Source: Patescibacteria group bacterium
Lineage (GTDB): Bacteria > Patescibacteriota > Patescibacteriia > JAHIZJ01
Assembly: GCA_041650335.1 (NCBI GenBank)
Contig: JBAZLK010000003.1
Location: 1 to 55,764, forward strand
Reading direction: 5' to 3'
Length of the DNA stretch: 55,764 nucleotides
Shown here: one piece after another, positions 28,567 through 50,957 of the stretch
Numbering within the stretch: the first letter of the stretch is position 1
Layout: the number at the start of each line of letters is the position of its first letter
Translations under genes and position numbers: made by a program
The notes under the pieces: generated by a model
The model's input: only the letters and a program-made list of their open reading frames with translations
What the model was told of the DNA's origin: nothing
Databases searched by the model: none

Positions 28567-31500
28567 TTATTGCGTGATCACGATACTGCCATCAAAAAGG
28601 CTATTGCAGTATGCACCCGCGCCCTGACACTGCCCCTGATTCTGACAGATGCTCAGCGGAGTAGTGCCGCCGCGACAGGCGCCCACGCAGGTACCACCGC
28701 CACAGTTCTGATCGCTCGAACAATCAGCGCCTGTGTTGTCGCAATACCCGCTGCCCTTGTCCCAATTATCTTCAACAAAGACACGGACATAGCAGGTATC
28801 GGGACCGCCGCCGGCTGCTCCGCAATCTCCATAGGTATAGTCATGCGTCAAGGTATGATACGGCCCATTCGGGTCTGACCGCGGCGGGATACCGGGATTC
28901 TTTGGAAATGATTCCCAGTGGTTATTCCCCCAGTCAACAACAAACTTCTTGATCGGCATTTGCTCGGGATCGACCATGGAATTGAAGGTGACTGTGGCCG
29001 TGCCTGACCCATTCTTGATTTGCACCGGTCCGGTCCGGCCGTTGATCTTAATATTGAATACCGTTGGTTGCGCCCAGCAGAAATCAAACGGAAAGCCGGT
29101 GATGTCGTTCGGCCGATTATCCGACAGACCGCCTGAACCATTATGGACTTTGCATTGCTCCATCGCATTAAAGGCATTTGTATAGGCGGCTTTAAACGAA
29201 TTCAGGCTGAGGTCTGGCTCATACTTGGCCTCGGTCGGGTCTGGCGCCGAATCAGGCAAGCCGTTGCAATATTGTAGTTGTTTGCTTTGGCCATGCTGCG
29301 CTTGGATATGGCCGAGCGTGCAATTATCACCCGATCGGATGCCGCCTTCGCATTCCCAGTCGGCACATTCAGCGACACCGTTCGTACACGCACCAGGCAC
29401 TTCACAACAATCGGTTGCGTCTTGGCCGACCCGACATGGATTGCCGAGTAGATCGCCGCCCGTGCAAATACCGTTGTATTGGATACATGACCCGCCGGAA
29501 ATACCCGTGCAATTTGAGTCAGAGGCACAGGCTTGGCCGCACCAATAGCCGCAACCGGGTGGATTGCCGTTTTCATTCCAACCGCAGATCGCCTCGGCGC
29601 AAGAGCCTTCAGGGCAATCCCCCTGTCCTGAGCACGGTCGTCCGGCGTTAGTGCCACCGACGCAGACTTTATCAACACAGGAACTCCCAACCTCGCATGA
29701 GCCGTTTCCGCAGTTGGCGCCGCTGCCGCTGCATCGTTCCTTCTCTTCGCAAACCCCACCGTTACATACGCCGGCGTCACAACGGGCGTTATTTAAGCGG
29801 CAAATATCGGCATTAGCAATGCAGTTTTGTCCGCCCGGACAATAATTTGCCGGCTGATTATTCGAGGCACACAACGTACCCGCCGGGTTCCCGCTGCAGA
29901 CGCCGTCGGCGCAGAAGCCGCTTCGGCAGTCGCATTGGCCGATCGCGTCGTAGGTACATTTTAAGTTGATATTACAGGAATACCCGGCCGGGCAGGCCTT
30001 GGCCGGCAAACACGTGACGGTATGATCGCCAGAACAACGATCCCGGTTCCAACAAACCTGCGCGGGGTTTGCAAATAAACACAGAATACCGGCATTGCAA
30101 TCCGCATCTTGTATGCATTGCGTACCCGGATAATCACCAAAACCGTCGACATTATTATCACAATACTTGGAACAATTTTGTCCGGCATTGCAATCCAAGC
30201 CAGTATCTTTGCAGATTGAGACACTGGCACAGCTACCAATATTCGGACAATCGCAGGCTGCCGGGAGGTTCGATACGCACTTCTTCAGCGCACCTTGTAT
30301 CAAACACGACGAACCGGTCGGACAATTGTTGGCAATGTTGCACTGATCACTGCCGGCGTCTGCTCCACCGACGCACCGTTGGGCGACACAGGCGTTGCCG
30401 CCGCCCGGGCAGGCACCGAGACCGCACGGTATCGTCGGGTCATTGCTGCAGCGCTGGCTCATCTCGCAGACTTCGCCCGGCGCACAGCCGCACGGCGTCA
30501 TCGGACTTGGGTTGTCCGGGTCATTGCTAATACAGAGCTGACCTGAACATACGCCGTCGCCGATATTACACTCATCGTTGTTTTCACACCCAGTTCCTCT
30601 GAACGGGTATTGCGGATCATTGGCCTTGAAGCAGCCCATCGTCGTGATATCGACGCATTTGCCGTCAGACCATACCCAGACGCCGTAAACATCAGCGAAG
30701 ATCCGCTGGATGCGTCGCAATCCTAAACCTCCGCCCGTGGCCGTGTAATTCGTCGGCGGCTGGTTCGGTGGCGGCGGTTCACCCGGAGTTAACGGGCCGC
30801 TGAATTGTTCCGTCGCTGTATAGCGATTTGGGAAGACGTCATCGCAAATAGTTATTTCCGACCGGTCATAACGGAAGCCGGTCCACCAGCCCCAGCTATA
30901 CAACCGTTTATTGGCTTTGTGCTTGCATGAATATGGAACGCCAGCGCGCGGATAGCTAAGATAGTCAACCTCGTCAAAGCCGTGTTCTACACCCCGGTAC
31001 GGCGTCCAGCCCCAGTCCTGAGCGAAGGGCGAGAATGAACCCCCGCCTGTTTGCTGCTGCGGATCCCACCAGAGATAGATGATCGGTTGGTATTTCGAGC
31101 CCAGGTCCTTGGTCATTTCATACGGATTGCCCCAGACTGACGTGTAGTCCGTATCCCAGGTCGCCGGGTCGCCCGGTACGTTGGTCACATTATTCCCGGC
31201 ATGGCCAACTGAACCCGGGTAGGTCAAACTGCCGTATGGATTTGCATCATCGTTAAAGGTAACGCCAAGATCCCAAATCTGGGAGTAATTTCCTTTTATC
31301 CGCTCGGCCCAGGCCTTGTTCTGTCCGCTCGGATCGACTGTCTGACCGATCACATCACAGCGGTATGCGAGCACCTCGCCGATGTTTCCCGGCCAGGCTT
31401 CGCCGAGATGATTATGGCTTAGCCAACCGTCAAACGGTTGCCAAACACCCGGCGCAATTGGATTGAGTCCGTTTTGGTGGTTTGAATCCCACCAGTTATA

Positions 31501-34500
31501 CTGGAGGTTCTCACCGCCGCCGCCGCTGTGTGACCAGTATTCGCAGACATCAGAATCCGGTATTTCGTTCGGCACGCAGACATATAGGCATTTGTCCTGA
31601 TGGCCGCCGCCGCGGATGGCTTTTTCACAGAGCTTGCGATGATAGCCGAGCTCTTCGCAGGAATAGTGATTAGCATAATTGCAATTGCCATTGGAGAGAC
31701 CGTACGGCCGCCGGAACTCGTAGAACGATCCTTGGAGGCAGTAGTAGAGCGGCGCATCGCCAAAATAGCCGACCAGCTGATCCGTATCATCGGCTTCGCC
31801 GGAAATGACGTCAACCGGCCACCACTGCAGACAGATACTGCGGTTTTTCGGGTCGGTTTCGAGGCAGTAGCCTTTCCAGCCGCGATAAATCTTCCGCGCC
31901 GTACCGGTGGTCTTGGTATAGTCGCATGACAATGAGTTTGACTCCGGATAGAGCCGGCACGACCTGACCACAAAACGGGGATCGTTTGGAAGCTCGGGCG
32001 GCATCTGCGTGGATTTCTTTTCCAGCAAGGTCTGGAACATCACGTCATCCACCTGGAATTTTTGCAGTCCGGCGTTTCCACCCGCGTCCACAATACTGAG
32101 ATAGGTATTTTTAAATACCCCGTTGACAACCATCGCATTGCCAAGCGGCAAGGTAAAGATCTGCCAATTCATCGTGGCCGTAACCGTGCCAAAAATCTGA
32201 CACGGTCCCGCATCATCGTTATAGCAAAGCTGAACTTTTATCTTCGAATCTTGATCCGCTCGCAATTTCAGACTAATGACCAGCGGCTGGTTATCAAATA
32301 TGAGTGAATCGAGATTGATCTTCGCTCCCGAATCAGCGCCGGTCAAACCGCCCACCTCCATCACCCAGTTCTGTTTTGTCGGATCAAGCGGGTCTTCGAC
32401 CGCCTTCAGGGCGTTCGGCGGGTTGATGTTCCGCGGCTCCCAGGGCGAGGAGTTCTTAAACTGAAAGTCGTAATTCGGCAAATTCATACCAATGCCGATT
32501 TCTTGCATTGACCCGGTTGGGTAATACCCGTGGATGACCTGACAGACATTAGTCTCGCCGACACACTGATCGCAATAGGTCGGATTATTGAGATCGCACG
32601 CCGTATTATTTGGGCAAACGCCGCCGGGACAGTCGTCTGGTACCTGGCAGAGCATGCCATCCTTATCGCCGCCCTGACAGATGCCGTCGCGCCAGCAGAC
32701 CGTGTTTGAGTCTTCGCTGCACCGCCAATTATAGCCGACCCGCGCGTAGCCTGAATAATTTACGGAGTTGTCAACTTCCGTTTTATGATCAAATGTCAGA
32801 TCGGTCGGGTGCGCCGGCGGCGAAACCAGTCGATTCATATACTCGACGGTCGGGGTGGCATTTTCAAATTTCGGCGTTCGAATGCAATGAGAGGTCAAAC
32901 CACAATCGGCATCGATGAGACAGGGTCGAGAGGGATCGTTTTCACATTGCCCTTCACCGACCGGCTTGATGCACTGGCCGGACGTGCCGAGCTGACGACA
33001 GTTCCCGATATCATAACAGGTTAGTTCCTTCGAACCGTCGCTTTTCTCCACTTCGTAGCTCGTCTTGCAGTACAACCACTGATTACAGACCCGATCACGA
33101 TCAACTTTATAGACGCTGTTGGAATCGGCCGTGCATCCACCGCCGCCCGCGCACGTCTCCGGCGTTCCTCGGTTTGTATCCAGTTTCGCGTATGTTAAAT
33201 CGCTATCATAGGTAAGACCCTGTGAATTGGTGGTGTCGTTGAATAGCATGCACCCTTCATCTTTATTGACCACGCCAGCGCAACTCGCCGAGTCAAGCGT
33301 ATTATCAATATAATAGTAAGGTTGGCAGCCAGACAGATACTCGGGCGGGAGGGCGTCGTTCTGATAGGGCCGGCACTGTTGATCCGTCCGGTAAAACTCG
33401 CCCTGGTCGTTGTACTCAGCCCGGCAATTTGCGTTGCAGCCTTGGAAAACACAGGTGCTTTGAGGACAGTCAGCGTTGATTTTACAATTCTGCCCTCCGT
33501 TCGGGCCAGCTAAACAGACGCCGTCTGGCGTTACTTTATCTGGTGACGGCGTTTGGGGATCGCGATACTCACTGCAACCGCTGGCGCCATTTTGACATTT
33601 ACCAACCCAATACTCGGTACATTTCTGACCGGCTGGACACTGGCCATCGTCTTGGCATATCTTTTCTGCACAATAGCCGTCATTCGAGCTGTTCGCGTCG
33701 GCACAGCCATATGCGGCATCGTTTGGATCGGCGTCAGAATCGCAGGCTTGCCCGGCGCGTATTCCGCCATAACAGACTTCCGTCAAGTCGGAGCATAGGC
33801 CGTCGTTATTGCCGCTCGCCTGATCACAGCCATAGAGCGGATCTTTCGGATCAACTTGCGAATTGCATTTTTCTCCGGCCCGATAGCCGCCACGGCACGT
33901 CTCTTGCAGCCGCGGTCCACAGACCTTCGTTGGCATCGGCGATTCTGGATATTGCTCGCAGAGGCCACCGTTACATGAGGCCAGATCCCCCGGACCGAAG
34001 CACGCCGCGCCCGGATTATTTCCGCCAATACAGGAGTATTTTTGGACGGGACAGAATTTATCCGTTCCGCTCTTCAGCCAGGTATCATAAACCTCGCCTT
34101 GATATTTGAGACTCTTACGGAAATCGCAGACTTGGGCGTTCGGCTGCTTAAATTGCGTATAACTTCCGGAATCAGCGCCAATTTGGAATTGATCGCAGAA
34201 TGTTTCTTCTTTCGTACAGAGTGTTTGGTCGTACTCGTCGGGATTATTGATGAGATAGGTCGTCTTGAATTTCGTGACCCGGCCTTCCACGTCAAAACTC
34301 GGCAAACCAAGGCCTTCGCAACCCTTCGCCTTGGCTTGGCATTTATACTTCGCCGCGTTGACGACCGGCCGGACATTGTCCGCTTCTACTTTTACGCCTT
34401 TGTCTGCCGGCTCATAGGGGAAAGCTGTGGTCGAGTTGTGCGTTTCAATAGCGGCGGTACAGCCGACTTTCTCGGGCCGACAGAGATTCGTGAAGCTCTG

Positions 34501-37500
34501 AATATATTGATCGTTCCCTTCGCTGTCCGTATAGAGCGAGCAACCAACCCATTGGGCTGGGCATTCCTGATAGGTTTTGTACCGGAGATAAACGCTATCG
34601 CGGGTTTCCCAAACCGTAATATTATCAATAAAGAAGCCGGCGCCCGCTTCGATCGTCAGTACCTCGGCCGGGTCAGGCGCGCCAACAAAATGGGCAGGGC
34701 CGAGAACATAATGATTCCAATTCTCGTTGGTCGCAGTCACGCCAGCAACCGGCACAAAGTTTACTGCCGGGTTCGGTCCAAATTTCACCGTGATCTGGGC
34801 ATCGTCCGCTTCGGCCTTTGCCCAGAATTCAATCATGTAATCCTTGCCATCTTCAACCAGCTCACTAACAGCCGTTGACATATTGGGGGTTACCTTGGCT
34901 GAGCCGCCGCCGGCCTTGAGAGATTCCGTGCTCCAGGTGACGTTACCGGTCCAGCCGGCCGTATCGCCATCGTCAAAATTATCCGTGATGATCTTCCGAA
35001 TATTGTAACCAGTGCTCCCCCGATACTCGCGGCAGGCTGCCTGGTTAGCCGGACAGCGCACGCCCTGGTCGGGGATTGCATTATAAATTGTGTTATCGAG
35101 GGTATTCCGGAGCGGGTGGCAGTCTTCCGAACAGGTGATGGTGTTAAACATCGGGCAATAGTAGCTGTTGCCGCTCTGGTCATAGTATTGGGTGCAGCCG
35201 AAATCGTTCGGATCGCAACCGCACGCCCCGCCAGCCGTCATTTCGGGCGGTGAATTTGTGCTTCCTTTCAAATCCTCTGCGACCAGCTCAAATCCGTTGA
35301 CGTCATCGCCTTCCCAGCGATAGTAGGTCGCGCAGGTCGGATTCGGTTGTTCGCAGCGGCGGATGGCGCTGTAATACTCAAGCCCCTCGCCGCCCTGGGC
35401 GACGATATCGAGATTGGTATATTCTTCACAACCGACATAGGCCGCGTCGCAGGTTTTTCCCGTCGTGGCGATAAAAGTCGTCGATAATATTCCCGACCGG
35501 TCAACTAACGCCTGGTCAGTGCCATTTGAGACGGGCATCTGCTGATAATCTTTGCACCCGACAAATTCAGCCGGACAATAATCATCCGCGGTCACCACCG
35601 CCGGCACCTTATCGCCTTTTTCATCAGGCGTGTACATATCGCACCCGACTTCATCTACCCGGCAAGCGATCGAATCCTTCGACAAGCTGACGCTCACCTG
35701 GTCAAATTGTCCGCCGCTCAATAAAACCCTGATAAACGCCGCGTCCGGTTTATCGGCCTCAACCCCGAAGGTGACAAAATCCCATCGGCCGGTGTTTGTT
35801 TCACGCTGAGCGCGCGGATCGGCGCCAGCGACCGTCAGGTCACAGTCGGGAACCACGGCCCGGTTCTTATCACGACATTCGGTGAGGAGCGGGGTAGCGC
35901 CGCCGCCTTTCACCCAAGCCGAAACGTCATAGCGCGTACCATAGACGATCGGTACGTCCTGATATCCGCCGGAGCCGGAGTAATAATCCCCATATCCTTG
36001 CGTGGCATCGATGGCGGTACCAACCCAGCCGTCGGCTTGATGGTCGCCGGCGACATAATTGTCATTTGTGTCGTCTTTATAATAATCATGCCCGCTGTCG
36101 ATACTGAAGCTGGAATTCGAAATGTAATTTTCCGCTTTATTTTTCAAATACGCTTGATTAGCCGTGTCATACATCGCATAGGACGTGACCTCGCCCAGCT
36201 CAAGCTGAACGCCGTCAAGCGTAATCTCGCAATTCGGAAAAATTTTAAAAGCCACTTGGTTTGGATTTGAAGTCGGCGCAGGCGGATCCGTGTCGCCGAC
36301 CTCGCCAAACTGGCCGGTCACAACAACTCTCGACCAGCCGTCCGCGCTCGCCCGGTGGGAATCCAGCGGATCGACGTAATTCATCCAAGCCCCGCCGGTG
36401 TGGTTTCCGCCGATCTCAACGTGGATATTGTCACACGCGCCTTTTGCAAAGAAAGATGCGGTAAATTTCTTATGATAGACCGGCGATTCAGTGTCAAAGT
36501 AATACGCCGCCTCGCCGCTTGTCCGAACGGCGTAGGTACCATCCGTAGCATCGGTTGTTGCAAAGGTGTCACCGGCGAACTCCCATTTCCACTGCGAGTA
36601 ATCGGCCGCGAAGACGTCTGGATCGTTATCGTCGGCTGTCCCGGTAAACGTTTCAAAGCTTGAATTGGCCGCGAGATTACTCCCGGCGATAACGGGAATA
36701 TATTCCGTGCAACCACGATCACCGCTCGAGCACTTCATGACATTATTATCCAATCGGATCTGATCGCCGGCCGCGAGATAGTCAGGCTCGGCCGGATTGA
36801 CCAAATGCTCCGGGGAGCTGCAGACAAAGCCTTTTTCCTTATTATCATAATTCTGGCAGTACCATTGACAGCCGGCGTTATCCGCCGAGCAGGAATCGTG
36901 ATTGACCGTGCTCTCAATGAAAGATACTTCCTTGTTCTTTGAATCAATAAAGGTTTGGCAGGTATTTTCATAGGCCTGACAGGCGGTCCCGGAAAATCGC
37001 CAGATCGGTTTTTCCTCAGCGCAGTAGCCATAGAACAAGCAGGTGCCGTCATCGGCTTCCTGAATGCAGGTACGTTCATCGGCACAGTAGCTTCCCCGTT
37101 CAACCTGCCGCGACGGCGTGTCGCGAGAATCGATTACCCCGTCGCCGGTGGTATCATCCAGTTGGACCAGCGCATCAGCCACCAGCTGCTCGCCCGGCCC
37201 TTCTTTTTTGCAATATGTTTCGGGCGCCTTCAGCACCCAGTTTGGATCAATCAGGTGATAAAACGGATTATCTATTTGAACGCCCTGGGGATTAGTCCAT
37301 TTTTCATCATCATACAGATCGACCAGCTCTTTCAACCCAAATCCCTGGGCTGGCACAACGTAATTTTTTATATAGAGCGCGGCCGCTTCCCAGGTCGAGG
37401 GGATGACGCGATATTTACGCAGGATAACCAGGCTGCGGTAGGGATAGCCGTTGGTATATTCCGGCTCTTGTCCATTTTGATCAAAACCAAACGTGCCCGT

Positions 37501-38622
37501 ACTGTTGAGCGAGCCTTCTTCAAGAGCTTGTTTGACCGTGATGCGGCGATTAATCGCGTCCGCGAAGTTCTCGTCGATCACGCAATTATTGGTCACGCGG
37601 TACTCGCTCGGACAGGCGGCGAGTTCGCTCACGATATCGACCGGTCCGCGCGCTCGAAAAGTTGGTCGGACAAGTTCGGCAAAGTACCGTTTGGCCGCGG
37701 AGACGCCGCTTGTTGTCATTTCAAAGCTATCTCCGCCTGACGGAAGGACGCCTTTTTCAAAAATTGTTTTGTAGAGCCGGCTGATCAAGGTGTTGGTGAA
37801 CAAGGAAAACGCATCGGCCAGCGGCTCGCCCGTATAGACTTTGTCGGCGGCCGTACTTTCTTGGATTGACAGGTTGGCAACCGTGTTGACGTATTCTTTT
37901 GGCGTTTTCGTAATGCCGGTCACCAAATCCTTCACGCCGAGAAAAGAGCTGGCTGTCTGCTCTAAACGCATTTTTGCTTCCGCTTTTGCGACCGCCTTTT
38001 CGGTCTCATCCATGATCAAGAAGTAAGCGCCGATTTGCGATGACTTAACATCAAAGACGTGCTGAAAATCGACCATGTCCTGAAGCGACATCTTGGATAT
38101 CTTGTTGAAATTCTTGGCCATGTTCGTCACCGGACAGGAAGCTTTCGGCTCGAGTGTTTGCTTGGCGTAGACACCGAGCTTTAAACGAATGGCCGGATCG
38201 AATGATATCGTACACAGGCTCTCGCCGAAAAGGCTCTGAAATTCCGTATCGAGAAATTCGCCAGCCGCGCCGTCGGCAACCTGAGTGAGATACTTTCCGG
38301 GGTTTGAGATGAAGAGGGGTTTCTGCCCTTTACCGCCCGAGCCGATGTAGACGGCGGTATCATAGGCGATCTTATTTAAGAAATATGAAAGACCTTTTTT
38401 CCAAGCCACGGCCGCGGCGCTTTTCAGTACCTTATATATGGCGTCAGTGACATTGCGATGCTCTTGAGCAACGTCTTCAACGGGAATAACGGCTTGAACC
38501 TTGGTTGGGACAAAATAAAACACTCCCAAGCTAACAACGAGTGAGAGCGATAGCATAACGCCGACGACAAGAGCGCGTAATTTTTTAGCTCGGTCTTTTG
38601 TTTGAGAATGGCTCTGTGACAT
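28567..38622 (-). CDS. Giant (3351 aa) membrane-anchored, extremely Cys-rich surface protein with CBM4_9-like and PKD-like modules
   Basis: Single uninterrupted ORF. N-terminal anchor KKLRALVVGVMLSLSLVVSLGVFYFVP. At least four jelly-roll/CBM-like modules start near aa 648 (NSSFETFTG), 830 (NSSFSIDSG), 1210 (DNFDDGDTAGW) and 2047 (YDFQFKNSSPW). Dense Cys arrays occur throughout. A PKD-like module lies near aa 3165-3260 (VTFNSMVDPEQMPIKKFVVDWGNNH...HTLTHDYTYG). Confidence 0.9.
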   Translation of the reverse strand: MSQSHSQTKDRAKKLRALVVGVMLSLSLVVSLGVFYFVPTKVQAVIPVEDVAQEHRNVTDAIYKVLKSAAAVAWKKGLSYFLNKIAYDTAVYIGSGGKGQKPLFISNPGKYLTQVADGAAGEFLDTEFQSLFGESLCTISFDPAIRLKLGVYAKQTLEPKASCPVTNMAKNFNKISKMSLQDMVDFQHVFDVKSSQIGAYFLIMDETEKAVAKAEAKMRLEQTASSFLGVKDLVTGITKTPKEYVNTVANLSIQESTAADKVYTGEPLADAFSLFTNTLISRLYKTIFEKGVLPSGGDSFEMTTSGVSAAKRYFAELVRPTFRARGPVDIVSELAACPSEYRVTNNCVIDENFADAINRRITVKQALEEGSLNSTGTFGFDQNGQEPEYTNGYPYRSLVILRKYRVIPSTWEAAALYIKNYVVPAQGFGLKELVDLYDDEKWTNPQGVQIDNPFYHLIDPNWVLKAPETYCKKEGPGEQLVADALVQLDDTTGDGVIDSRDTPSRQVERGSYCADERTCIQEADDGTCLFYGYCAEEKPIWRFSGTACQAYENTCQTFIDSKNKEVSFIESTVNHDSCSADNAGCQWYCQNYDNKEKGFVCSSPEHLVNPAEPDYLAAGDQIRLDNNVMKCSSGDRGCTEYIPVIAGSNLAANSSFETFTGTADDNDPDVFAADYSQWKWEFAGDTFATTDATDGTYAVRTSGEAAYYFDTESPVYHKKFTASFFAKGACDNIHVEIGGNHTGGAWMNYVDPLDSHRASADGWSRVVVTGQFGEVGDTDPPAPTSNPNQVAFKIFPNCEITLDGVQLELGEVTSYAMYDTANQAYLKNKAENYISNSSFSIDSGHDYYKDDTNDNYVAGDHQADGWVGTAIDATQGYGDYYSGSGGYQDVPIVYGTRYDVSAWVKGGGATPLLTECRDKNRAVVPDCDLTVAGADPRAQRETNTGRWDFVTFGVEADKPDAAFIRVLLSGGQFDQVSVSLSKDSIACRVDEVGCDMYTPDEKGDKVPAVVTADDYCPAEFVGCKDYQQMPVSNGTDQALVDRSGILSTTFIATTGKTCDAAYVGCEEYTNLDIVAQGGEGLEYYSAIRRCEQPNPTCATYYRWEGDDVNGFELVAEDLKGSTNSPPEMTAGGACGCDPNDFGCTQYYDQSGNSYYCPMFNTITCSEDCHPLRNTLDNTIYNAIPDQGVRCPANQAACREYRGSTGYNIRKIITDNFDDGDTAGWTGNVTWSTESLKAGGGSAKVTPNMSTAVSELVEDGKDYMIEFWAKAEADDAQITVKFGPNPAVNFVPVAGVTATNENWNHYVLGPAHFVGAPDPAEVLTIEAGAGFFIDNITVWETRDSVYLRYKTYQECPAQWVGCSLYTDSEGNDQYIQSFTNLCRPEKVGCTAAIETHNSTTAFPYEPADKGVKVEADNVRPVVNAAKYKCQAKAKGCEGLGLPSFDVEGRVTKFKTTYLINNPDEYDQTLCTKEETFCDQFQIGADSGSYTQFKQPNAQVCDFRKSLKYQGEVYDTWLKSGTDKFCPVQKYSCIGGNNPGAACFGPGDLASCNGGLCEQYPESPMPTKVCGPRLQETCRGGYRAGEKCNSQVDPKDPLYGCDQASGNNDGLCSDLTEVCYGGIRAGQACDSDADPNDAAYGCADANSSNDGYCAEKICQDDGQCPAGQKCTEYWVGKCQNGASGCSEYRDPQTPSPDKVTPDGVCLAGPNGGQNCKINADCPQSTCVFQGCNANCRAEYNDQGEFYRTDQQCRPYQNDALPPEYLSGCQPYYYIDNTLDSASCAGVVNKDEGCMLFNDTTNSQGLTYDSDLTYAKLDTNRGTPETCAGGGGCTADSNSVYKVDRDRVCNQWLYCKTSYEVEKSDGSKELTCYDIGNCRQLGTSGQCIKPVGEGQCENDPSRPCLIDADCGLTSHCIRTPKFENATPTVEYMNRLVSPPAHPTDLTFDHKTEVDNSVNYSGYARVGYNWRCSEDSNTVCWRDGICQGGDKDGMLCQVPDDCPGGVCPNNTACDLNNPTYCDQCVGETNVCQVIHGYYPTGSMQEIGIGMNLPNYDFQFKNSSPWEPRNINPPNALKAVEDPLDPTKQNWVMEVGGLTGADSGAKINLDSLIFDNQPLVISLKLRADQDSKIKVQLCYNDDAGPCQIFGTVTATMNWQIFTLPLGNAMVVNGVFKNTYLSIVDAGGNAGLQKFQVDDVMFQTLLEKKSTQMPPELPNDPRFVVRSCRLYPESNSLSCDYTKTTGTARKIYRGWKGYCLETDPKNRSICLQWWPVDVISGEADDTDQLVGYFGDAPLYYCLQGSFYEFRRPYGLSNGNCNYANHYSCEELGYHRKLCEKAIRGGGHQDKCLYVCVPNEIPDSDVCEYWSHSGGGGENLQYNWWDSNHQNGLNPIAPGVWQPFDGWLSHNHLGEAWPGNIGEVLAYRCDVIGQTVDPSGQNKAWAERIKGNYSQIWDLGVTFNDDANPYGSLTYPGSVGHAGNNVTNVPGDPATWDTDYTSVWGNPYEMTKDLGSKYQPIIYLWWDPQQQTGGGSFSPFAQDWGWTPYRGVEHGFDEVDYLSYPRAGVPYSCKHKANKRLYSWGWWTGFRYDRSEITICDDVFPNRYTATEQFSGPLTPGEPPPPNQPPTNYTATGGGLGLRRIQRIFADVYGVWVWSDGKCVDITTMGCFKANDPQYPFRGTGCENNDECNIGDGVCSGQLCISNDPDNPSPMTPCGCAPGEVCEMSQRCSNDPTIPCGLGACPGGGNACVAQRCVGGADAGSDQCNIANNCPTGSSCLIQGALKKCVSNLPAACDCPNIGSCASVSICKDTGLDCNAGQNCSKYCDNNVDGFGDYPGTQCIQDADCNAGILCLFANPAQVCWNRDRCSGDHTVTCLPAKACPAGYSCNINLKCTYDAIGQCDCRSGFCADGVCSGNPAGTLCASNNQPANYCPGGQNCIANADICRLNNARCDAGVCNGGVCEEKERCSGSGANCGNGSCEVGSSCVDKVCVGGTNAGRPCSGQGDCPEGSCAEAICGWNENGNPPGCGYWCGQACASDSNCTGISGGSCIQYNGICTGGDLLGNPCRVGQDATDCCEVPGACTNGVAECADWECEGGIRSGDNCTLGHIQAQHGQSKQLQYCNGLPDSAPDPTEAKYEPDLSLNSFKAAYTNAFNAMEQCKVHNGSGGLSDNRPNDITGFPFDFCWAQPTVFNIKINGRTGPVQIKNGSGTATVTFNSMVDPEQMPIKKFVVDWGNNHWESFPKNPGIPPRSDPNGPYHTLTHDYTYGDCGAAGGGPDTCYVRVFVEDNWDKGSGYCDNTGADCSSDQNCGGGTCVGACRGGTTPLSICQNQGQCQGAGAYCNSLFDGSIVITQ

Positions 38623-42212: not shown

Positions 42213-43385
42213 TTAAATTACGTTGATAAAGAGAGAAAATATCGCCGCGATCCAAAACAACGTATTCAAGCCGATAGCGCCGACCAAGAAAAACAGCAAG
42301 ACGAAAACGATTATCCGGCCGATATTGAGCGACATTTCGCGGAAGACGCTCATTTCATCGACGTAATGGCCGGCGTCGGCCATTTGTTCATAGGTCAAGG
42401 CATCGAACGGCGTCCGCATCACCGTACTGGCGAGGTTGTGATAGGTCGAGGCAATAAAAATCTGATAGCCGGTCGTGACAAATGTCTTCGCGCCCCAGCC
42501 GATCGCGTAAATCACCGTGCCCCAGCGCAGCAGCTTGTGTTTGGAAAAGGCGTCGGTAAACCGCCCCATGATGAGCTGGACGACAATCGTCACTAAAACC
42601 GCCAATGTCGAGACAGCGCCGATTTCGAAATAATTGTGATTCAATATTTGATAGATAAAGAGCGGCCAGATTGACAGACCAATTCCATTCTCCGCTCCTT
42701 CGGCGGCATAGGCAAACAGCAAACGTCGGTGTTTCGTAACCAGGAGGCGGTAGGTTTCAAAATAGCCGTAGGAAAACTTTTCTCTCACCGGACGGGTGAA
42801 GATTAGAGGGAAGATCGAGAGAAAAACCAAAATAACCACGATGATCAAGAGATTTTGATACCCGTATTTGGCAATGATGAAGCCGGCCGCGATCGGAATG
42901 GTGATGCCGACCAGATCGGCGATGGCATTGAAATAGCTGAGCTGCCGGCCGCGATTTCGGCGGCTCGTGAACTCAGCCAGCTCGGTGTGATACGGCACCC
43001 AGTATAAACACCGCCAGATAGTCGTCATCCCGATGGCTATCAGGATAAAAGTCCAAACGCCGTTTTGAACGAAATAATACGCGACGTAGGAAAGGGCTAA
43101 AAACGGTATGCCGATCATCATTGACCGCTTCAAGCCCAACCGGCTCATCGCCCGGGCGCCCGGCTGGATGAACAGGAGGTAAGCCAGCCATTCGAGGATG
43201 TAAAACACGATCACCGCCTTGAGCGAGTAATTCAGCTTCTCGTACAAAAAGATGGGCAAAAATATGCCCAGCAGGCTCGTGGCCGCGTTCTGGATCAAGC
43301 GCTGCGAATAGAGCGCGATGATGTCGGGCGTAAACTTTCCCTTTGGTTTTTCGAGTGAAAAGGCCTCTTTAGACATTCGGGACAA
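42213..43385 (-). CDS. MFS transporter (paralog B)
   Basis: 390 aa, about 12 TM helices. Its start overlaps the leuS stop region by 17 nt. Confidence 0.75.
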   Translation of the reverse strand: MSRMSKEAFSLEKPKGKFTPDIIALYSQRLIQNAATSLLGIFLPIFLYEKLNYSLKAVIVFYILEWLAYLLFIQPGARAMSRLGLKRSMMIGIPFLALSYVAYYFVQNGVWTFILIAIGMTTIWRCLYWVPYHTELAEFTSRRNRGRQLSYFNAIADLVGITIPIAAGFIIAKYGYQNLLIIVVILVFLSIFPLIFTRPVREKFSYGYFETYRLLVTKHRRLLFAYAAEGAENGIGLSIWPLFIYQILNHNYFEIGAVSTLAVLVTIVVQLIMGRFTDAFSKHKLLRWGTVIYAIGWGAKTFVTTGYQIFIASTYHNLASTVMRTPFDALTYEQMADAGHYVDEMSVFREMSLNIGRIIVFVLLFFLVGAIGLNTLFWIAAIFSLFINVI

Positions 43386-46300
43386 CCAGGTTTATTATTT
43401 TTCCTTTGACGTAGATTATTTTTTTCGGCTGCTGGCCGCTCAGGGATTTCCGAATTTTCTCGCGCGACAATGTCTGTTTGGTAACCTCGTCTTCGGACGC
43501 TTCGGCCGAGACAGTGACCCGGTCGCGCATTTTACCGTTGACCTGAATGATAATTTCAATTTCGGCATCATGTAAGAATCGTTCATCCGTCGTTGGCCAG
43601 CCGGCGACTGCGGCCAGTCCCTTGCCCCCGTGTTGAGCCCACAGTTCCTCGGCGAGATGAGGCGCAAACGGTGACAGAATCCGAAGGAAGGCAGTAAAAT
43701 CAGAGCTGCTAATTTCTCCCGCTTGACCCAGGTGATTGATAAAAATCATCAGCGCGCTGACCGCCGTATTGAACTTGAACGTCTCGAGATCGTGGCTGAC
43801 TTTTTGAAACGTCTGGTGAAGAAGTTTTTCCGTGGCCGCGTCCGTCTGTTTGCCGATTTTCTTTTGACTGTCCCAAACCTTGTCCAGAAAGCGCCGGACG
43901 CCGATCAACCCTTGGGTCGACCAAGGAATCGTGTCCTCGAACGGCCCCATAAACATCTCGTAAATCCGTAGGCTGTCAGCGCCGTATTGTTTCACCAGAT
44001 CATCGGGATTGATAACGTTACCGAAGCTTTTCGACATTTTGCGTCCGTCCTCAGCCAGAACAATGCCGTGCGAATGCCGCCGCCGATACGGTTCGGGATG
44101 AGGCACCAGGCCCTGATCGTATAAAAACTTGTGCCAGAAACGGGAATACAAAAGATGCAGGGTCGTGTGTTCCATGCCGCCGTTATAAATATCAACCGGC
44201 AACCAATGATCGAGCTTTTTCCGATCGGCGAAAACGGTCGGATTGTGCGGGTCGCAAAAACGCAGGTAGTACCACGACGAACCCGCCCAATTCGGCATGG
44301 TGTCGGTTTCGCGCTTCGCCGGCTTCTGGCAAATCGGGCATTTTGTGTTTACCCATTTTTTTATGCCGGCCAGGGGCGACTCGCCTGTATCCGTCGGCTG
44401 GTATTTCTTGACGTACGGCAATTCCACCGGCAACTGGTCCTCCGGCACGGGCACCGGACCGTGTTCGGGACAATGAATAATCGGGATCGGCTCGCCCCAG
44501 TAGTGCTGCCGCGAAAAGACCCAGTCGCGAAGTTTGTATTGGACGGCTGGCGCGCCAAACGCCTTGGCCATTTTTCCGATCGCCTCGTTGGATGACAACC
44601 CGTTATACGGGCCGGAATTGCAGACAACGCCTTCACCGGTGTAACAATTAGAATCCGACACGTAGGCCTCCCAGATGTATTTGAAGGAGGCTAAATTCAA
44701 CCATTCGCCCATTTTTGCTTTTTCTATCCAAACCGCCGTATGATGTTTCGTGTGTTCATCCGAAACTGGCTCCCTCGTTTCATCGACCAGTTCAAAAAGC
44801 ATGCCCTGCCCATACGCATACCGGTTTTCGTCTTTGTGCGTGGTAAAAAAATGGTTGTGCTGCTCGCCGCCAAGATTTTTTACGAACTTCAAATTCAGAT
44901 AACCGGTTTCTTCGCGGATTTCCCGACGGGCCGCTTCTTCATAGCTTTCCCCTTCATCAACGCCGCCGATAATACCGGAACGCCAGTCGTATTTTTCCCA
45001 GTCCAGACATAAAAAGGCGTTTTTCTTCTTGCTATAAACCAGGGCGTAGGCTGTTTTGCGTTTTACTGTTTTCTTGTTCGGTCGGAGCGCATCTTTATCT
45101 TCCGCATTTTTTGTGAAATACGGGGCAACCACCTGACGGATCGGCAAACCATATTTTTTCGCGAATTCATAATCCCGTTCATCGTGAGCGGGCACCGCCA
45201 TGATTGCGCCCGTACCGTAACTCAACAGCACATAGTCGGCCACCCAGATTGGAATTTCTTCATTATTTGCTGGATTAATCGCTTTCACCCCCTTCAACTC
45301 AACGCCGGTCTTTTCCTTTGCCAAATCGGTCCGGTCTAAATCCGACTTCTTCGTCGCTTTCTCGATATATTTTTCAACTTCTCCAAAATTTTGAATTTTA
45401 AATTTTAAATTTTGAATTATCTCATGCTCAGGCGCCACCACAAGGTAGGTGGCTCCGAAAATCGTATCCGGCCGGGTGGTAAAGACTGGTATCGCCGGGC
45501 TGAGCAATTGGCAGAGTGCGTCCGAATACGGCTTCAATTCAATAAATTCTTCGGCCGCGGTTTGATCATACGGGTAGCGTCCGGTCGCTTTTACGCGATA
45601 CAACGACCGGAGCGGGAAATGCCAGTCGATTTTTTCGTGCGGTTTCCTTGTGAGAATAATATCGCGGCGCGACTGACTCTGGGTTTCGCGGCCATCCGGG
45701 GTAATCAACACGAGAGCGTCAATCCAATATCCGGCCACGCCAGCTGGCTGCCTCTCGACGATTGTTTTATAGAAATCTAAGATCGCCTGTCCGATTTCTT
45801 TCGGCGCCAGGTCTTTTTCAGAACGGCCGCGGAGGGCATTTCGCTTCACCTGCGCCGGGTCGATCATTTCGCCGTCGATGAAAAGTCCGGTGTCTGTCCC
45901 GAGAATCGGTAAATCGGTTTTACCGAAATACGCCTTGGCTTTCCGCCGGGCGTTTTCGACGAGATTACTCTCTTCCGTTACATCAACGGTTGGTAATCCA
46001 GCTTCGGCGGGCGTGACAACTGACACCTCCGGCAAATATTTCGCGAGCAGTTTTTTCACCCGTTCAACCTTGCTCGGATTACTCGTGGCCAGCAATACCT
46101 TAATTCTTCCTTTTGAGTTCTGAATTTTGAATTGAATTTCCGCCCCTTCGCTCCGACCGATCCAATTGACTTGCTGGGTTTTTATCTTCTTCAAATAGTC
46201 GACGGTATCCAAATCTTTCAACAACCGATCAGCATAGGCGGTTATTTTCAGCATCCATTGTTTCTGGAGCCGGCGTGTGACCGGTGTCCCGCAGCGTTCG

Positions 46301-46845
46301 CATTTGCCCCCGATTACCTCTTCATTGGCTAAGCCGATCTTATCTTTCGGGCACCAGTTGATCGGGATCGTCGCCTGATAGGCCAAGCCCTTTTTATACA
46401 ACTGGAGAAAAATCCACTGCGTCCATTTGTAATAGTTCGGGTCGGTCGTATCGATTTCGCGCGACCAGTCAAATGAGAGACCGAGCGACTTCATTTGTTT
46501 TCGAAAAGTGGCGATGTTTGTATCGGTCGCCTGGCGGGGATGGACGCCCGTTTTGATGGCATAGTTTTCCGTCGGCAAGCCGAACGCGTCCCAACCAATG
46601 GGATAGAGCACGGCAAAACCTTTCAGGCGACTGTACCGCGCCAGCGCGTCGATGGCGCTATAACTGCGAACGTGACCGACATGAAGTCCGTCGCCCGATG
46701 GGTAAGGAAATTCGACCAAGAGATAGCGTTTTGTTTGCTCGGTATTTTCTGGCGCCTCAAAAACCGCCTGTTCCTGCCAGGTTTTTTGCCACTTCCGCTC
46801 AATTTTTTCCGGTTGATACCGCGTTCGTCGCGAAGACTGAGGCAT
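43369..46845 (-). CDS. leuS: Leucine--tRNA ligase with two extra inserted domains (Ham1/ITPase-like and Nudix)
   Basis: The track ORF starts at 46890. The start more likely is ATG 46845 (MPQSSRRTRYQPEKIERKWQKTWQ, the usual LeuRS N-terminus). HIGH motif is HVGH; KMSKS is present. CP1 editing motifs TTRPDTIFGATY and GTGAIMAVPAHDERDYEFA. Total ~1158 aa versus about 800-870 for typical bacterial LeuRS. Confidence 0.9.
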   Translation of the reverse strand: MPQSSRRTRYQPEKIERKWQKTWQEQAVFEAPENTEQTKRYLLVEFPYPSGDGLHVGHVRSYSAIDALARYSRLKGFAVLYPIGWDAFGLPTENYAIKTGVHPRQATDTNIATFRKQMKSLGLSFDWSREIDTTDPNYYKWTQWIFLQLYKKGLAYQATIPINWCPKDKIGLANEEVIGGKCERCGTPVTRRLQKQWMLKITAYADRLLKDLDTVDYLKKIKTQQVNWIGRSEGAEIQFKIQNSKGRIKVLLATSNPSKVERVKKLLAKYLPEVSVVTPAEAGLPTVDVTEESNLVENARRKAKAYFGKTDLPILGTDTGLFIDGEMIDPAQVKRNALRGRSEKDLAPKEIGQAILDFYKTIVERQPAGVAGYWIDALVLITPDGRETQSQSRRDIILTRKPHEKIDWHFPLRSLYRVKATGRYPYDQTAAEEFIELKPYSDALCQLLSPAIPVFTTRPDTIFGATYLVVAPEHEIIQNLKFKIQNFGEVEKYIEKATKKSDLDRTDLAKEKTGVELKGVKAINPANNEEIPIWVADYVLLSYGTGAIMAVPAHDERDYEFAKKYGLPIRQVVAPYFTKNAEDKDALRPNKKTVKRKTAYALVYSKKKNAFLCLDWEKYDWRSGIIGGVDEGESYEEAARREIREETGYLNLKFVKNLGGEQHNHFFTTHKDENRYAYGQGMLFELVDETREPVSDEHTKHHTAVWIEKAKMGEWLNLASFKYIWEAYVSDSNCYTGEGVVCNSGPYNGLSSNEAIGKMAKAFGAPAVQYKLRDWVFSRQHYWGEPIPIIHCPEHGPVPVPEDQLPVELPYVKKYQPTDTGESPLAGIKKWVNTKCPICQKPAKRETDTMPNWAGSSWYYLRFCDPHNPTVFADRKKLDHWLPVDIYNGGMEHTTLHLLYSRFWHKFLYDQGLVPHPEPYRRRHSHGIVLAEDGRKMSKSFGNVINPDDLVKQYGADSLRIYEMFMGPFEDTIPWSTQGLIGVRRFLDKVWDSQKKIGKQTDAATEKLLHQTFQKVSHDLETFKFNTAVSALMIFINHLGQAGEISSSDFTAFLRILSPFAPHLAEELWAQHGGKGLAAVAGWPTTDERFLHDAEIEIIIQVNGKMRDRVTVSAEASEDEVTKQTLSREKIRKSLSGQQPKKIIYVKGKIINLVVPNV

Positions 46846-47022
46846 GATCACGACACAATTAATTAATCGACGGCTCGTCTTCAAAAGCATATCATTTTTT
46901 TAGGGTTTTGCCACGTGAAAATCCATCATACGACTATACCTTGACAGTACCGGCCTCACATGATAACCTACTAAATATCCAAACGAAGTGATGCGATAAC
47001 GTAGCTAATATTAGCCAATTAA

Positions 47023-49247: not shown

Positions 49248-50885
49248 CTACGTCTCGTTGATCATCGGCAGGTCGATGTGATGATCAGCCGCGGCGCGTA
49301 CGGCCTCGTCATAGCCGGCGTCCGCGTGCCGGATAATCCCAGTGGCCGGATCGTTCGTGAAGACCCGCTCGGCCAGTTTCAGACACTCGCCGTCGCCGGT
49401 GATGACGAAGCACTGGCCAGCATGGACAGACTTGCCAATGCCGACGCCACCGCCCTGGTGCACGCTCACCCAGGTCGCGCCCGAGGACGCAGCCACGAGC
49501 GCGTTGAGGATCGGCCAGTCGGCGACCGCGTCTGTGCCATCCTTCATGCCCTCGGTCTCGCGGCTAGGTGAGGCCACCGAGCCGCAGTCGAGATGGTCGC
49601 GGCCGACCCAGATCGGTCCGATCTCGTGCCGATTCACCCGCTTCCAGATCTCATGGACCGCCGCCCAACGCTCGCCCATGCCGAGCCAGCAGACACGCGC
49701 CGGCAGGCCCGGCAGGCGGCTGAAGTCGATGTGCGTCTGCGCCTTCCCGATCCAGTTGCGCAGCATGGCGTTGTCGCCGAAGAGCTCGAGAATGATGCTG
49801 TCGATCACGGCGATGTCACGTGGATTGCCGGTGAGGGATACCACCCGGAACGGACCACGGCCCTGACAGAAGAGCGGCCGGACATATAGGAGCGCGAAGC
49901 CTTGGAACTCGAAAGCGCAGCCCAGACCGTTCTCCTGAGCCCTGAGACGTATACCGTTGCCGTATTCGAACGTCGTCGCGCCCAGCCGCTTCAGCGACAC
50001 CATGAAATGCACATGGTGCGAGATGGTCTCGAGCGCACGCCGCCGGTACTCATCGGGGTTCCCGGCCCGAAGCCGGTTGGCCTCGTCAAATGACAGGCTG
50101 GCCGGGTAGTACCCGACTAACGGATCATGTGCCGAGGTCTGGTCAGTCAGGATGTCGGGTATCTGATTGCGCCTGATCAAGTATTCGAGCAGATCAACGG
50201 CGTTGGCCCGGACCGCGATGGCAACTGCCTCCCGTGCTGCCCGGGCAGCGAACGCCCGATCAACTGCTTGACCAATGTCCGTGAACACCTCGTCGACCCA
50301 GCCCTCGCGCTGACAGCGCTCGATTTTAGCCGGATTGATCTCAGCGATCAGGATCGTCGCCCCGGTCATCTTCCCGGCCGGAGCCTGTGCCCCACCCATG
50401 TTACCGAGGCCGGCCGTGACAATGAGCTTGCCCGGACCGGCACCAGCAGCAGAGAACGTCTCGTATGTCCCCTGCATGATGCCCTGCTGGCCGATGAACG
50501 ACCATGACCCGGCGGTCATCTGGCCGTACATGATCAGACCGGCGCGCTCGAGCAGCCAGAATTCCTCGTCCATGCACCACTGCGGCACCATCAGGGAATT
50601 CGCGAACAGCGCCCGCGGCGAATGCTCGTGCGTCCGCAGCACGCCGGCCGGCTTGCCGCTCTGGACGAGCAGCGTCTCATCCGGCTTCAGTCGGCGGAGC
50701 GTCCGGTCAAAGACCTCGAAGCACTCCCAGTTCCGCGCGGCCTTGCCCCGGCCGCCGTAGATGATCAGTTCTTCAGGCACCGCGCCCTGCACCACGTTGT
50801 TGTACAACATGCGCAGCAGCGCTTCGATCTGCCAGTTCTTGCAGTGCAGTTCACTGCCCGTGATGAGTTTGATCGGCCAACCCAT
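49248..50885 (-). CDS. hutU: Urocanate hydratase
   Basis: Near full-length match by eye to urocanase: GRGKAARNWE, MYGQMTAGSW.FIGQQGIMQGTYETF, TDQTSAHDPL, GRDHLDCGSVASPSRETE, SVHQGGGVGIG. Start moved to ATG 50885 (AGGAGG 7 nt upstream). The track start 50957 lies upstream of the predicted transcription start. Confidence 0.9.
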   Translation of the reverse strand: MGWPIKLITGSELHCKNWQIEALLRMLYNNVVQGAVPEELIIYGGRGKAARNWECFEVFDRTLRRLKPDETLLVQSGKPAGVLRTHEHSPRALFANSLMVPQWCMDEEFWLLERAGLIMYGQMTAGSWSFIGQQGIMQGTYETFSAAGAGPGKLIVTAGLGNMGGAQAPAGKMTGATILIAEINPAKIERCQREGWVDEVFTDIGQAVDRAFAARAAREAVAIAVRANAVDLLEYLIRRNQIPDILTDQTSAHDPLVGYYPASLSFDEANRLRAGNPDEYRRRALETISHHVHFMVSLKRLGATTFEYGNGIRLRAQENGLGCAFEFQGFALLYVRPLFCQGRGPFRVVSLTGNPRDIAVIDSIILELFGDNAMLRNWIGKAQTHIDFSRLPGLPARVCWLGMGERWAAVHEIWKRVNRHEIGPIWVGRDHLDCGSVASPSRETEGMKDGTDAVADWPILNALVAASSGATWVSVHQGGGVGIGKSVHAGQCFVITGDGECLKLAERVFTNDPATGIIRHADAGYDEAVRAAADHHIDLPMINET

Positions 50886-50957
50886 CTGTCTGCCTCCTTT
50901 CCCCAGACCGCCCAACAGCCAGAGTGGAAAAACACCCGGTAGCAACACAATGCTCAT

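Follow-up and report, generated by a model that had tools for sequence, protein, structure and literature searches.

The leucyl-tRNA synthetase (LeuRS) gene leuS, in a 55,764-nucleotide stretch of Patescibacteria DNA (GenBank assembly GCA_041650335.1, contig JBAZLK010000003.1, positions 1 to 55,764; hereafter the window), encodes what is predicted to be a functional, bona fide bacterial-type LeuRS with two additional whole domains nested inside its CP1 editing domain: a divergent member of the inosine triphosphate pyrophosphatase (ITPase)/Ham1 fold, which we call module 1, and a Nudix hydrolase domain, which we call module 2. The explanation that we favor, with a probability of about 60%, is that this is a single functional LeuRS carrying two nested, autonomous, and active nucleotide pyrophosphohydrolases that are exchanged among lineages. 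An earlier reading of the sequence (the original prediction) had proposed a LeuRS with Ham1/ITPase-like and Nudix insertions, and this is borne out by family profiles (TIGR00396 for the host), predicted folds, and conserved catalytic residues. The finding is real and, so far as we found, not in print, yet nested enzymes of this sort recur, and the window shows a single case of them.

A complete LeuRS with two enzyme domains inside CP1

The leuS gene is one uninterrupted open reading frame (ORF) of 1173 aa without stop codons, in which M16, at position 46845, is probably the true start. The equivalog model TIGR00396 (leuS_bact) scores 981.2 bits over the whole protein against a cutoff of 548.4, and this is the only LeuRS above that cutoff in its own genome (G000), which comprises 1.24 Mb in 24 contigs, the window being contig 3, and is estimated to be 100% complete. 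A functional enzyme is predicted on these grounds, as the sole LeuRS of a genome estimated to be complete. The HIGH motif reads HVGH (aa 70-73, nt 46672-46683), KMSKS occupies aa 951-955 (nt 44026-44040), and the editing motifs are kept, namely the threonine-rich TTRPDT at aa 471-476 and GTGAIMAVPAHDERD (GTG...AHDERD) at aa 559-573. PF13603 scores 198 bits over the whole protein, with its best stretch at aa 466-596, and the full set of Pfam matches on the ORF consists of class I catalytic, LeuRS editing, and anticodon-binding domains together with NUDIX and Ham1p_like.

When aligned with the Thermus thermophilus LeuRS (PDB 1h3n; 717 bits), all host segments are collinear from end to end, with residues 24-262, 466-588, and 749-947 pairing with T. 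thermophilus (Tth) residues 3-242, 242-362, and 376-580. Because the alignment breaks between these segments, the two extra blocks are aa 263-465 and aa 589-748 (Table 1). The original prediction had put them at about 45496..46107 and 44656..45108, within a few codons of the 45496-46104 and 44647-45126 found here, and the motifs it quoted, including the Nudix box, are all present. It had also placed the inserts at the hinges of CP1; on this point it was mistaken, since judged by the 1h3n alignment both modules lie inside CP1. Module 1 follows the strand that ends near Tth 241 and precedes the strand that leads into TTRPDT, and module 2 stands in place of Tth 363-375, a surface loop within CP1 in the published structure.

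Table 1. Parts of the leuS ORF and their coordinates in the window
Feature	Position	Strand	Basis
leuS ORF	43369..46890	-	TIGR00396 981 bits; sole LeuRS of the genome
LeuRS N-terminal catalytic part, aa 17-262, with HVGH and first CP1 strand	46105..46842	-	Tth 3-242
Module 1, ITPase/Ham1 fold, divergent subfamily, aa 263-465	45496..46104	-	PF01725, AlphaFold model, Foldseek, hhalign
CP1 core between the modules, aa 466-588, TTRPDT and AHDERD intact	45127..45495	-	PF13603; Tth 242-362
Module 2, Nudix hydrolase domain, aa 589-748	44647..45126	-	PF00293, AlphaFold model, Foldseek
Rest of CP1, second catalytic half, anticodon-binding and C-terminal domains, aa 749-1173	43372..44646	-	Tth 376-876; PF08264 match

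An architecture of this kind could in principle arise from a chimeric assembly or from the frameshifted fusion of separate genes, but LeuRS sequence flanks each module on both sides in a single frame. A congeneric genome (G136) repeats the continuous ORF with the same two-module layout over 1172 aligned residues, and proteins from independent metagenome-assembled genomes (MAGs; P0002, P0003, and P0004) carry both inserts. Because G136 and these MAGs show the same layout, the contiguity of the ORF is confirmed and we conclude that it is not an assembly chimera; we give an artefact next to no credence. Homologs of the protein are labeled Patescibacteria or Paceibacterota in the databases. An intein or homing endonuclease was considered for the inserts and rejected: no Hint or intein family appears among the Pfam matches up to E = 1, and the junction residues are I263 and A466 rather than C, S, or T.

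Module 1 is a separate subfamily of the ITPase fold

At the level of sequence, PF01725 (Ham1p_like) reaches 30.6 bits in module 1 against a gathering cutoff of 22.5, over aa 265-339 and profile positions 1-72 only, and the match to solved RdgB/Ham1 proteins likewise covers only the first ~78 residues of the module, which include ATSNPSK (aa 268-274) and GTDTG (aa 331-335). An alignment of 17 module 1 sequences (A1), 15 of them nested and 2 free-standing, has invariant residues at N271, K274, R277, E306, N313, K317, D333, K349, R350, R409, P426, R428, and Y431 in LeuRS numbering, a pattern of N, K, E, K, and D together with K-R, R, and P-x-R-x-x-Y. N271, K274, E306, K317, and D333 align with residues of RdgB and 3tqu. 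The N-terminal residues common to canonical Ham1 proteins bind metal and phosphate, and the canonical Y-D-x-I-F and S-H-R motifs serve base recognition.

The fold is recognizable over a much longer stretch. The AlphaFold (AF2) model of module 1 has a predicted local distance difference test score (pLDDT) of 92.6, and a Foldseek search with it returns full-length matches to the Ham1/RdgB/ITPA structures 3tqu, 6wwd, 1k7k, 2q16, and 2j4e, with template modeling (TM) scores of 0.66-0.78 and 15-24% identity. Alignment of A1 with canonical Ham1 proteins of the same class by hhalign gives 99.5% probability over 186 columns; in it the invariant D of Y-D-x-I-F corresponds to an invariant R in module 1 (F-P-L-R-x-L-Y), and module 1 has no C-terminal S-H-R motif. 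Thus, module 1 shares with the RdgB/Ham1/ITPA proteins (PF01725; TIGR00042) the fold over its whole length and the N-terminal S/T-x-N-x-x-K, E, N-A-x-x-K-A, and D-x-G motifs, but it differs from them in being nested in another protein, in having R for D in Y-D-x-I-F, and in lacking SHR. It also falls well short of the TIGR00042 RdgB/Ham1 equivalog cutoff (27.9-31.3 bits versus 145.35). Since the C-terminal specificity motifs differ from those of RdgB/Ham1, module 1 is a separate subfamily of the ITPase fold and not an RdgB equivalog. The original prediction had likened the start of this block to the N-terminal pattern of RdgB/Ham1, and by sequence the resemblance indeed covers only the first ~75 residues. 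Judging from the residues that are retained, module 1 is probably still a nucleoside-triphosphate (NTP) pyrophosphatase, one with a different base pocket. It is the only PF01725 match in its own genome; Ham1 is present in 14 of 14 control genomes.

Module 2 is a Nudix domain with an intact catalytic box

PF00293 (NUDIX) matches aa 611-725 with 46.6 bits against a gathering cutoff of 21.1, so that both modules score above their curated Pfam cutoffs. The Nudix box GGVDEGESYEEAARREIREETGY (aa 642-664, nt 44899-44967) is complete and fits G-x5-E-x7-R-E-U-x-E-E-x-G-U. In an alignment of 16 diverse copies of module 2 (A2), G642, E657, E660, E661, G663, K686, and W721 are invariant and R656 is nearly so; K686 and W721 are specific to this Nudix clade. 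The AF2 model (pLDDT 95.2) shows a complete alpha/beta/alpha Nudix fold, with 477 PDB matches at E ≤ 0.001 in Foldseek. The top match is the Enterococcus faecalis Nudix protein 2azw, whose function is uncharacterized (TM 0.76/0.82), and other near neighbors are the Aquifex diadenosine tetraphosphate (Ap4A) hydrolase 3i7u, mycobacterial MutT1, the diadenosine polyphosphatase Rv2985, the T. thermophilus diadenosine hexaphosphate (Ap6A) hydrolase Ndx1, NudI, and NudB. The best combined profile and fold matches, which are 3i7u (from A. aeolicus), 1vc8 (Ndx1), 9cxx (MutT1/Rv2985), and 2azw, share the intact Nudix box with module 2; unlike them, module 2, at 17-20% identity to these structures, has its own K686 and W721 and belongs to a clade nearly confined to LeuRS. 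Our best guess from sequence and model is that its substrate would be of the (di)nucleoside-polyphosphate type.

The 1.24-Mb genome has 17 Nudix-domain matches, comprising 16 intact ORFs (the LeuRS module included) and one short match with stop codons, a Nudix load that is very high for a genome of this size. Four of the matches lie close together on contig 4 (e.g., C4:101917-104346). The idea that module 2 arose recently from another Nudix gene of this genome was rejected, as none of the 16 other Nudix ORFs matches it at E ≤ 1e-8.

If the modules were no longer enzymes, they might instead be nucleotide-binding sensors, or structural or RNA-binding additions that regulate or stabilize LeuRS. 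The loss of the canonical Ham1 base-recognition motifs from module 1 would fit this, as would the fact that neither module reaches any NCBIfam equivalog cutoff. However, the residues that are invariant in the alignments of both modules (17 and 16 sequences) are precisely the catalytic ones that bind metal and phosphate, and free-standing homologs have the same invariants, which fits an enzyme better than an accessory of LeuRS. We therefore regard a purely non-enzymatic role as highly unlikely.

Distribution in the class and sites of insertion

Our sample of the class contains 151 genomes, with a LeuRS match in 145. In at least 38 of these 145 the LeuRS ORF is 950 aa or longer, compared with a baseline of 800-870 aa, and breaks in the LeuRS profile cluster near positions 236-241, 354-377, and 436-442. 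The clade of module 2 occurs in 17 genomes, with 16 of the 17 matches in LeuRS-sized ORFs (669-1558 aa). In G000, G136, G020, and G035, module 1 lies within LeuRS. Two further genomes, G134 and G100, have full-length free-standing homologs of module 1 (223-224 aa, 41-47% identical) and insert-free LeuRS proteins of 817 and 835 aa encoded on a different contig, and linkage of the free-standing genes to leuS was accordingly rejected for both. The neighbors of the Ham1-like gene in G100 resemble truB, uvrB, ruvA, and rpoB/C, as judged by eye from their N-termini.

Canonical Ham1 is missing in all six sampled genomes, from four families, that have the module 1 subfamily, and it is present in one relative from each of the four families (G087, G085, G098, and G038). 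This distribution weakly suggests that the module 1 subfamily does the same cellular job as canonical Ham1. Module 1 is missing from the LeuRS of G087, a member of the family to which the window's genome belongs, and the junction there reads KFKIKVFTTRPDT; this LeuRS carries a different Nudix domain at the same insertion site as module 2, designated site B, and a serine hydrolase further on.

A wider but biased sample of 120 database homologs has inserts at about six LeuRS sites, with site B filled in 114 of the 120 and occupied by Nudix in 106. The two-module architecture is common and widespread among Patescibacteria in the databases. LeuRS proteins with inserts are often named after their cargo, as "non-canonical purine NTP pyrophosphatase" or "alpha/beta fold hydrolase" (P0003, P0004, P0015, P0042, P0059, P0061, and P0066), and as a consequence genomes may seem to be without LeuRS. 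The original prediction held the architecture to be undescribed, and full-text literature searches indeed returned no description of a two-module LeuRS; it is not rare, however, being widespread and often misnamed.

The modules in other hosts

A search of 1.84 billion representative proteins with the module 1 profile (E ≤ 1e-30) yielded 40 clusters: about 18 are free-standing, about 12 have the module within a protein of more than 900 aa, and fragments make up the remainder. In Pfam scans of the hosts with unusual module positions, one LeuRS has its Ham1-like module after the editing domain (P0156) and another has it inside the anticodon-binding domain (P0154). P0198, on a 14-kb Logan contig, is a class II alanyl-tRNA synthetase (AlaRS) with guanylate kinase at aa 534-711, a Ham1-like domain at aa 726-925, and a serine hydrolase at aa 965-1112. 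An ASCH-like stretch is also visible by eye in P0198, and all of its cargo is nested in the AlaRS catalytic domain. P0150 (L042:4001-8866, on a 271-kb ENA contig) is a DNA topoisomerase I of 1621 aa with three extra domains in one ORF: Nudix (aa 286-402), Ham1-like (aa 445-640, 148 bits), and a LAGLIDADG intein (aa 942-1369). This protein is archaeal (topA_arch 635 bits against a cutoff of 458), and the adjoining uS7 and uS12 are of archaeal/eukaryotic type. Given these other hosts, an archaeal topoisomerase I among them, the Ham1-like module is not tied to LeuRS, to CP1, or to tRNA synthetases. The cargo seen so far consists of the Ham1-like subfamily, Nudix, HAD, serine hydrolase, and guanylate kinase, and the hosts are LeuRS (at several sites), AlaRS, and archaeal topoisomerase I.

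These hosts bear directly on the principal alternative to autonomy, which is that the modules cooperate with LeuRS. Carried on the mobile CP1, they could hydrolyze nucleotides that arise as by-products of the synthetase reaction or that poison it, such as Ap4A and other ApnA compounds formed from Leu-AMP and ATP, non-cognate aminoacyl-adenylates, or antibiotics that mimic adenylates; tRNA-Leu ends are another conceivable target. Most of the hosts found are tRNA synthetases (LeuRS and AlaRS), insertion sites in and around CP1 are used recurrently, the module 2 clade occurs almost only within LeuRS in the class sample, and module 2 has Ap4A and Ap6A hydrolases as well as diadenosine polyphosphatases among its structural neighbors (3i7u, 1vc8, 9cxx, and MutT1); these points speak for cooperation. 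There is also a precedent for protection of this kind, as dedicated nucleotide hydrolases, a Parcubacteria homolog included, guard a synthetase from adenylate-analog antibiotics (bioRxiv 10.1101/2020.03.04.977132). On the other hand, the same Ham1-like subfamily turns up in an archaeal topoisomerase I and, within LeuRS, at four distinct positions, one of them in the anticodon-binding domain; the free-standing copies of G100 and G134 are not beside leuS; comparable positions hold unrelated cargo (guanylate kinase, HAD, serine hydrolase); and close relatives such as G087 do without module 1. Taken together, a service to the synthetase reaction appears to us unlikely, but it deserves to be kept in view.

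Selection and exchange

Both modules are under purifying selection of about the same stringency as the synthetase. The ratio of nonsynonymous to synonymous divergence (dN/dS) from the G136 ortholog is 0.064 in the host part of the gene; module 1 has a value of 0.119 and module 2 one of 0.046. The module trees and the host tree disagree. In the host tree P0001/P0002 group with P0006 (support 98/98), whereas in both module trees they group with P0003/P0004 (97/97 and 97/98). In approximately unbiased (AU) tests the host data reject {P0001-P0004} (p = 0.0004) and the module data reject {P0001, P0002, P0006} (p = 0.001); the host data also reject the pairing of P0073 with P0102 that appears in the module 1 tree (p = 3e-5). 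These conflicts between module trees and host tree suggest that modules are exchanged by recombination. For the CP1 core between the modules (aa 466-588) the tree is unresolved, and the AU test does not reject the host grouping (p about 0.3).

Synonymous divergence between the leuS genes of G000 and G136 (L030) falls from 0.4-0.5 over aa 17-588 to 0.13-0.17 between about aa 600 and aa 1173, a drop that suggests recombination with a breakpoint inside the gene, close to the left edge of module 2. Base composition was considered as a mark of recent transfer and is uninformative, as G+C at third codon positions (GC3) in module 1 (0.60) matches that of the host (0.61) and in module 2 is slightly lower (0.53).

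If modules move in this way, they might be selfish passengers, that is, horizontally moving cassettes whose imprecise removal from an essential gene would be lethal, so that they would persist much as inteins do, only with no splicing and with any benefit to the cell incidental. Incongruent module and host trees, patchy presence among close relatives, and the step in synonymous divergence near the left edge of module 2 are all consistent with this, and the hosts are essential proteins, one of which also contains a true LAGLIDADG intein. Nevertheless, the modules evolve under purifying selection equal in strength to that on the host and have invariant catalytic residues, Pfam detects no homing endonuclease or Hint domain in the leuS protein, and the GC3 of the modules is close to that of the host. 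We consider it quite unlikely that the modules are largely selfish passengers.

Weighing autonomy against a role tied to LeuRS

In the explanation that we favor, module 1 would be an ITPase-fold nucleoside-triphosphate pyrophosphatase with the catalytic and phosphate-binding residues of Ham1 and another base pocket, and module 2 would be a Nudix pyrophosphohydrolase that probably acts on (di)nucleoside polyphosphates. Both would be catalytically active, autonomous nucleotide house-cleaning enzymes, with module 1 supplying the only ITPase-type activity of the cell. The essential LeuRS would merely carry, co-express, and keep them, leaving the chemistry of aminoacylation and editing unaltered, and the modules, possibly along with adjoining CP1 sequence, would be swapped by recombination between the leuS genes of different lineages. 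Autonomy is favored because of the unlinked free-standing copies, the variety of hosts and sites, the unrelated cargo in similar loops, and the close relatives without module 1. The original prediction had offered gene economy, hydrolysis of Ap4A or aminoacyl-adenylates, or altered editing as possible roles; the evidence gathered here leans toward modules that act on their own.

Several observations count against this explanation or loosen parts of it. The near confinement of the module 2 clade to LeuRS-sized ORFs (16 of 17 in the class sample) could point to a role tied to LeuRS. LeuRS outnumbers the other hosts by a wide margin and certain loops recur, with 114 of 120 homologs filled at site B in what is a biased sample, which a purely host-agnostic model does not account for. 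As module 1 is without the canonical specificity motifs, hydrolysis of ITP and XTP may be missing from it altogether. The mutual exclusion of module 1 and canonical Ham1 is a weak argument (roughly p = 0.04, four lineages), since ~45% of the genomes in the class are without any Ham1. Finally, the groups compared in the AU tests were picked after the trees had been seen.

Gene neighborhood of leuS

The neighbors of leuS are a major facilitator superfamily (MFS) transporter, Sua5/YrdC, a second MFS transporter, KsgA, and a divergently transcribed LysM-M23 peptidase, and within the window the neighboring genes give no hint of module function. The 3' end of leuS and the downstream MFS-transporter ORF (42213-43385) overlap by 17 nt (43369-43385), which suggests that the two are co-transcribed.

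Elsewhere in the window, a giant ORF of 3351 aa (28567-38622, minus strand), whose sole Pfam match is a weak one to the carbohydrate-binding CBM_4_9, probably encodes a very large surface protein of a kind typical of these bacteria. A full-length urocanase gene (49248-50957, minus strand) has all three Pfam urocanase domains and lies in a region with a G+C of 0.58 compared with ~0.51; it may have been acquired horizontally.

Known systems and wider meaning

Canonical bacterial LeuRS proteins (TIGR00396; T. thermophilus 1h3n/2byt and Escherichia coli 4aq7/3zgz) share with the window's LeuRS the host segments, the motifs, and the single gene copy; the latter differs in its 203 and 160 extra residues, which amount to two whole enzyme domains in CP1. 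The combination of a class Ia synthetase with an unrelated catalytic domain recurs in NF040702, [quoted passage not shown], compared here by model name; the window's LeuRS differs in carrying two hydrolases at internal positions of CP1, and these come from a set of exchangeable domains (Nudix, Ham1-like, serine hydrolase, HAD, guanylate kinase). Inteins are likewise in-frame extra sequences in essential genes, patchy and horizontally moving, and the Ham1-like host P0150 also has one. Unlike inteins, the modules in the window have no Hint or endonuclease domain and are ordinary enzymes that are presumably kept in the mature protein.

Few enzymes have been studied as thoroughly as the aminoacyl-tRNA synthetases, and CP1 is regarded as a self-contained editing module. 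A CP1 that hosts two whole enzymes is a domain inside a domain inside a domain. In a 2026 survey of domain insertions the LeuRS editing domain is an insert-only module, never a host (PMC13114784); the leuS protein described here is a counterexample in which that domain is the host. The modules themselves define an uncharacterized ITPase-fold subfamily and a LeuRS-bound Nudix clade, and the architecture explains a recurring annotation error in which LeuRS genes are named for their cargo. If the modules were coupled to the synthetase reaction after all, they would represent a new kind of translation quality control or self-protection.

Domain-sized inserts in about a quarter of the LeuRS genes sampled from the class speak to how gene-poor symbionts, which have to scavenge nucleotides and keep them clean, package accessory enzymes. 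A broader generalization, which we put forward tentatively and with the odds somewhat against it, is that ultra-small symbionts of both domains of life (Patescibacteria and small-genome archaea) systematically nest autonomous enzymes of nucleotide salvage and house-cleaning in permissive loops of large, essential information-processing enzymes, and that these modules move by recombination from gene to gene and from lineage to lineage, the host gene being an intein-like "safe harbor" without splicing. If this is true, then essential genes would be the carriers of an exchangeable set of accessory enzymes.

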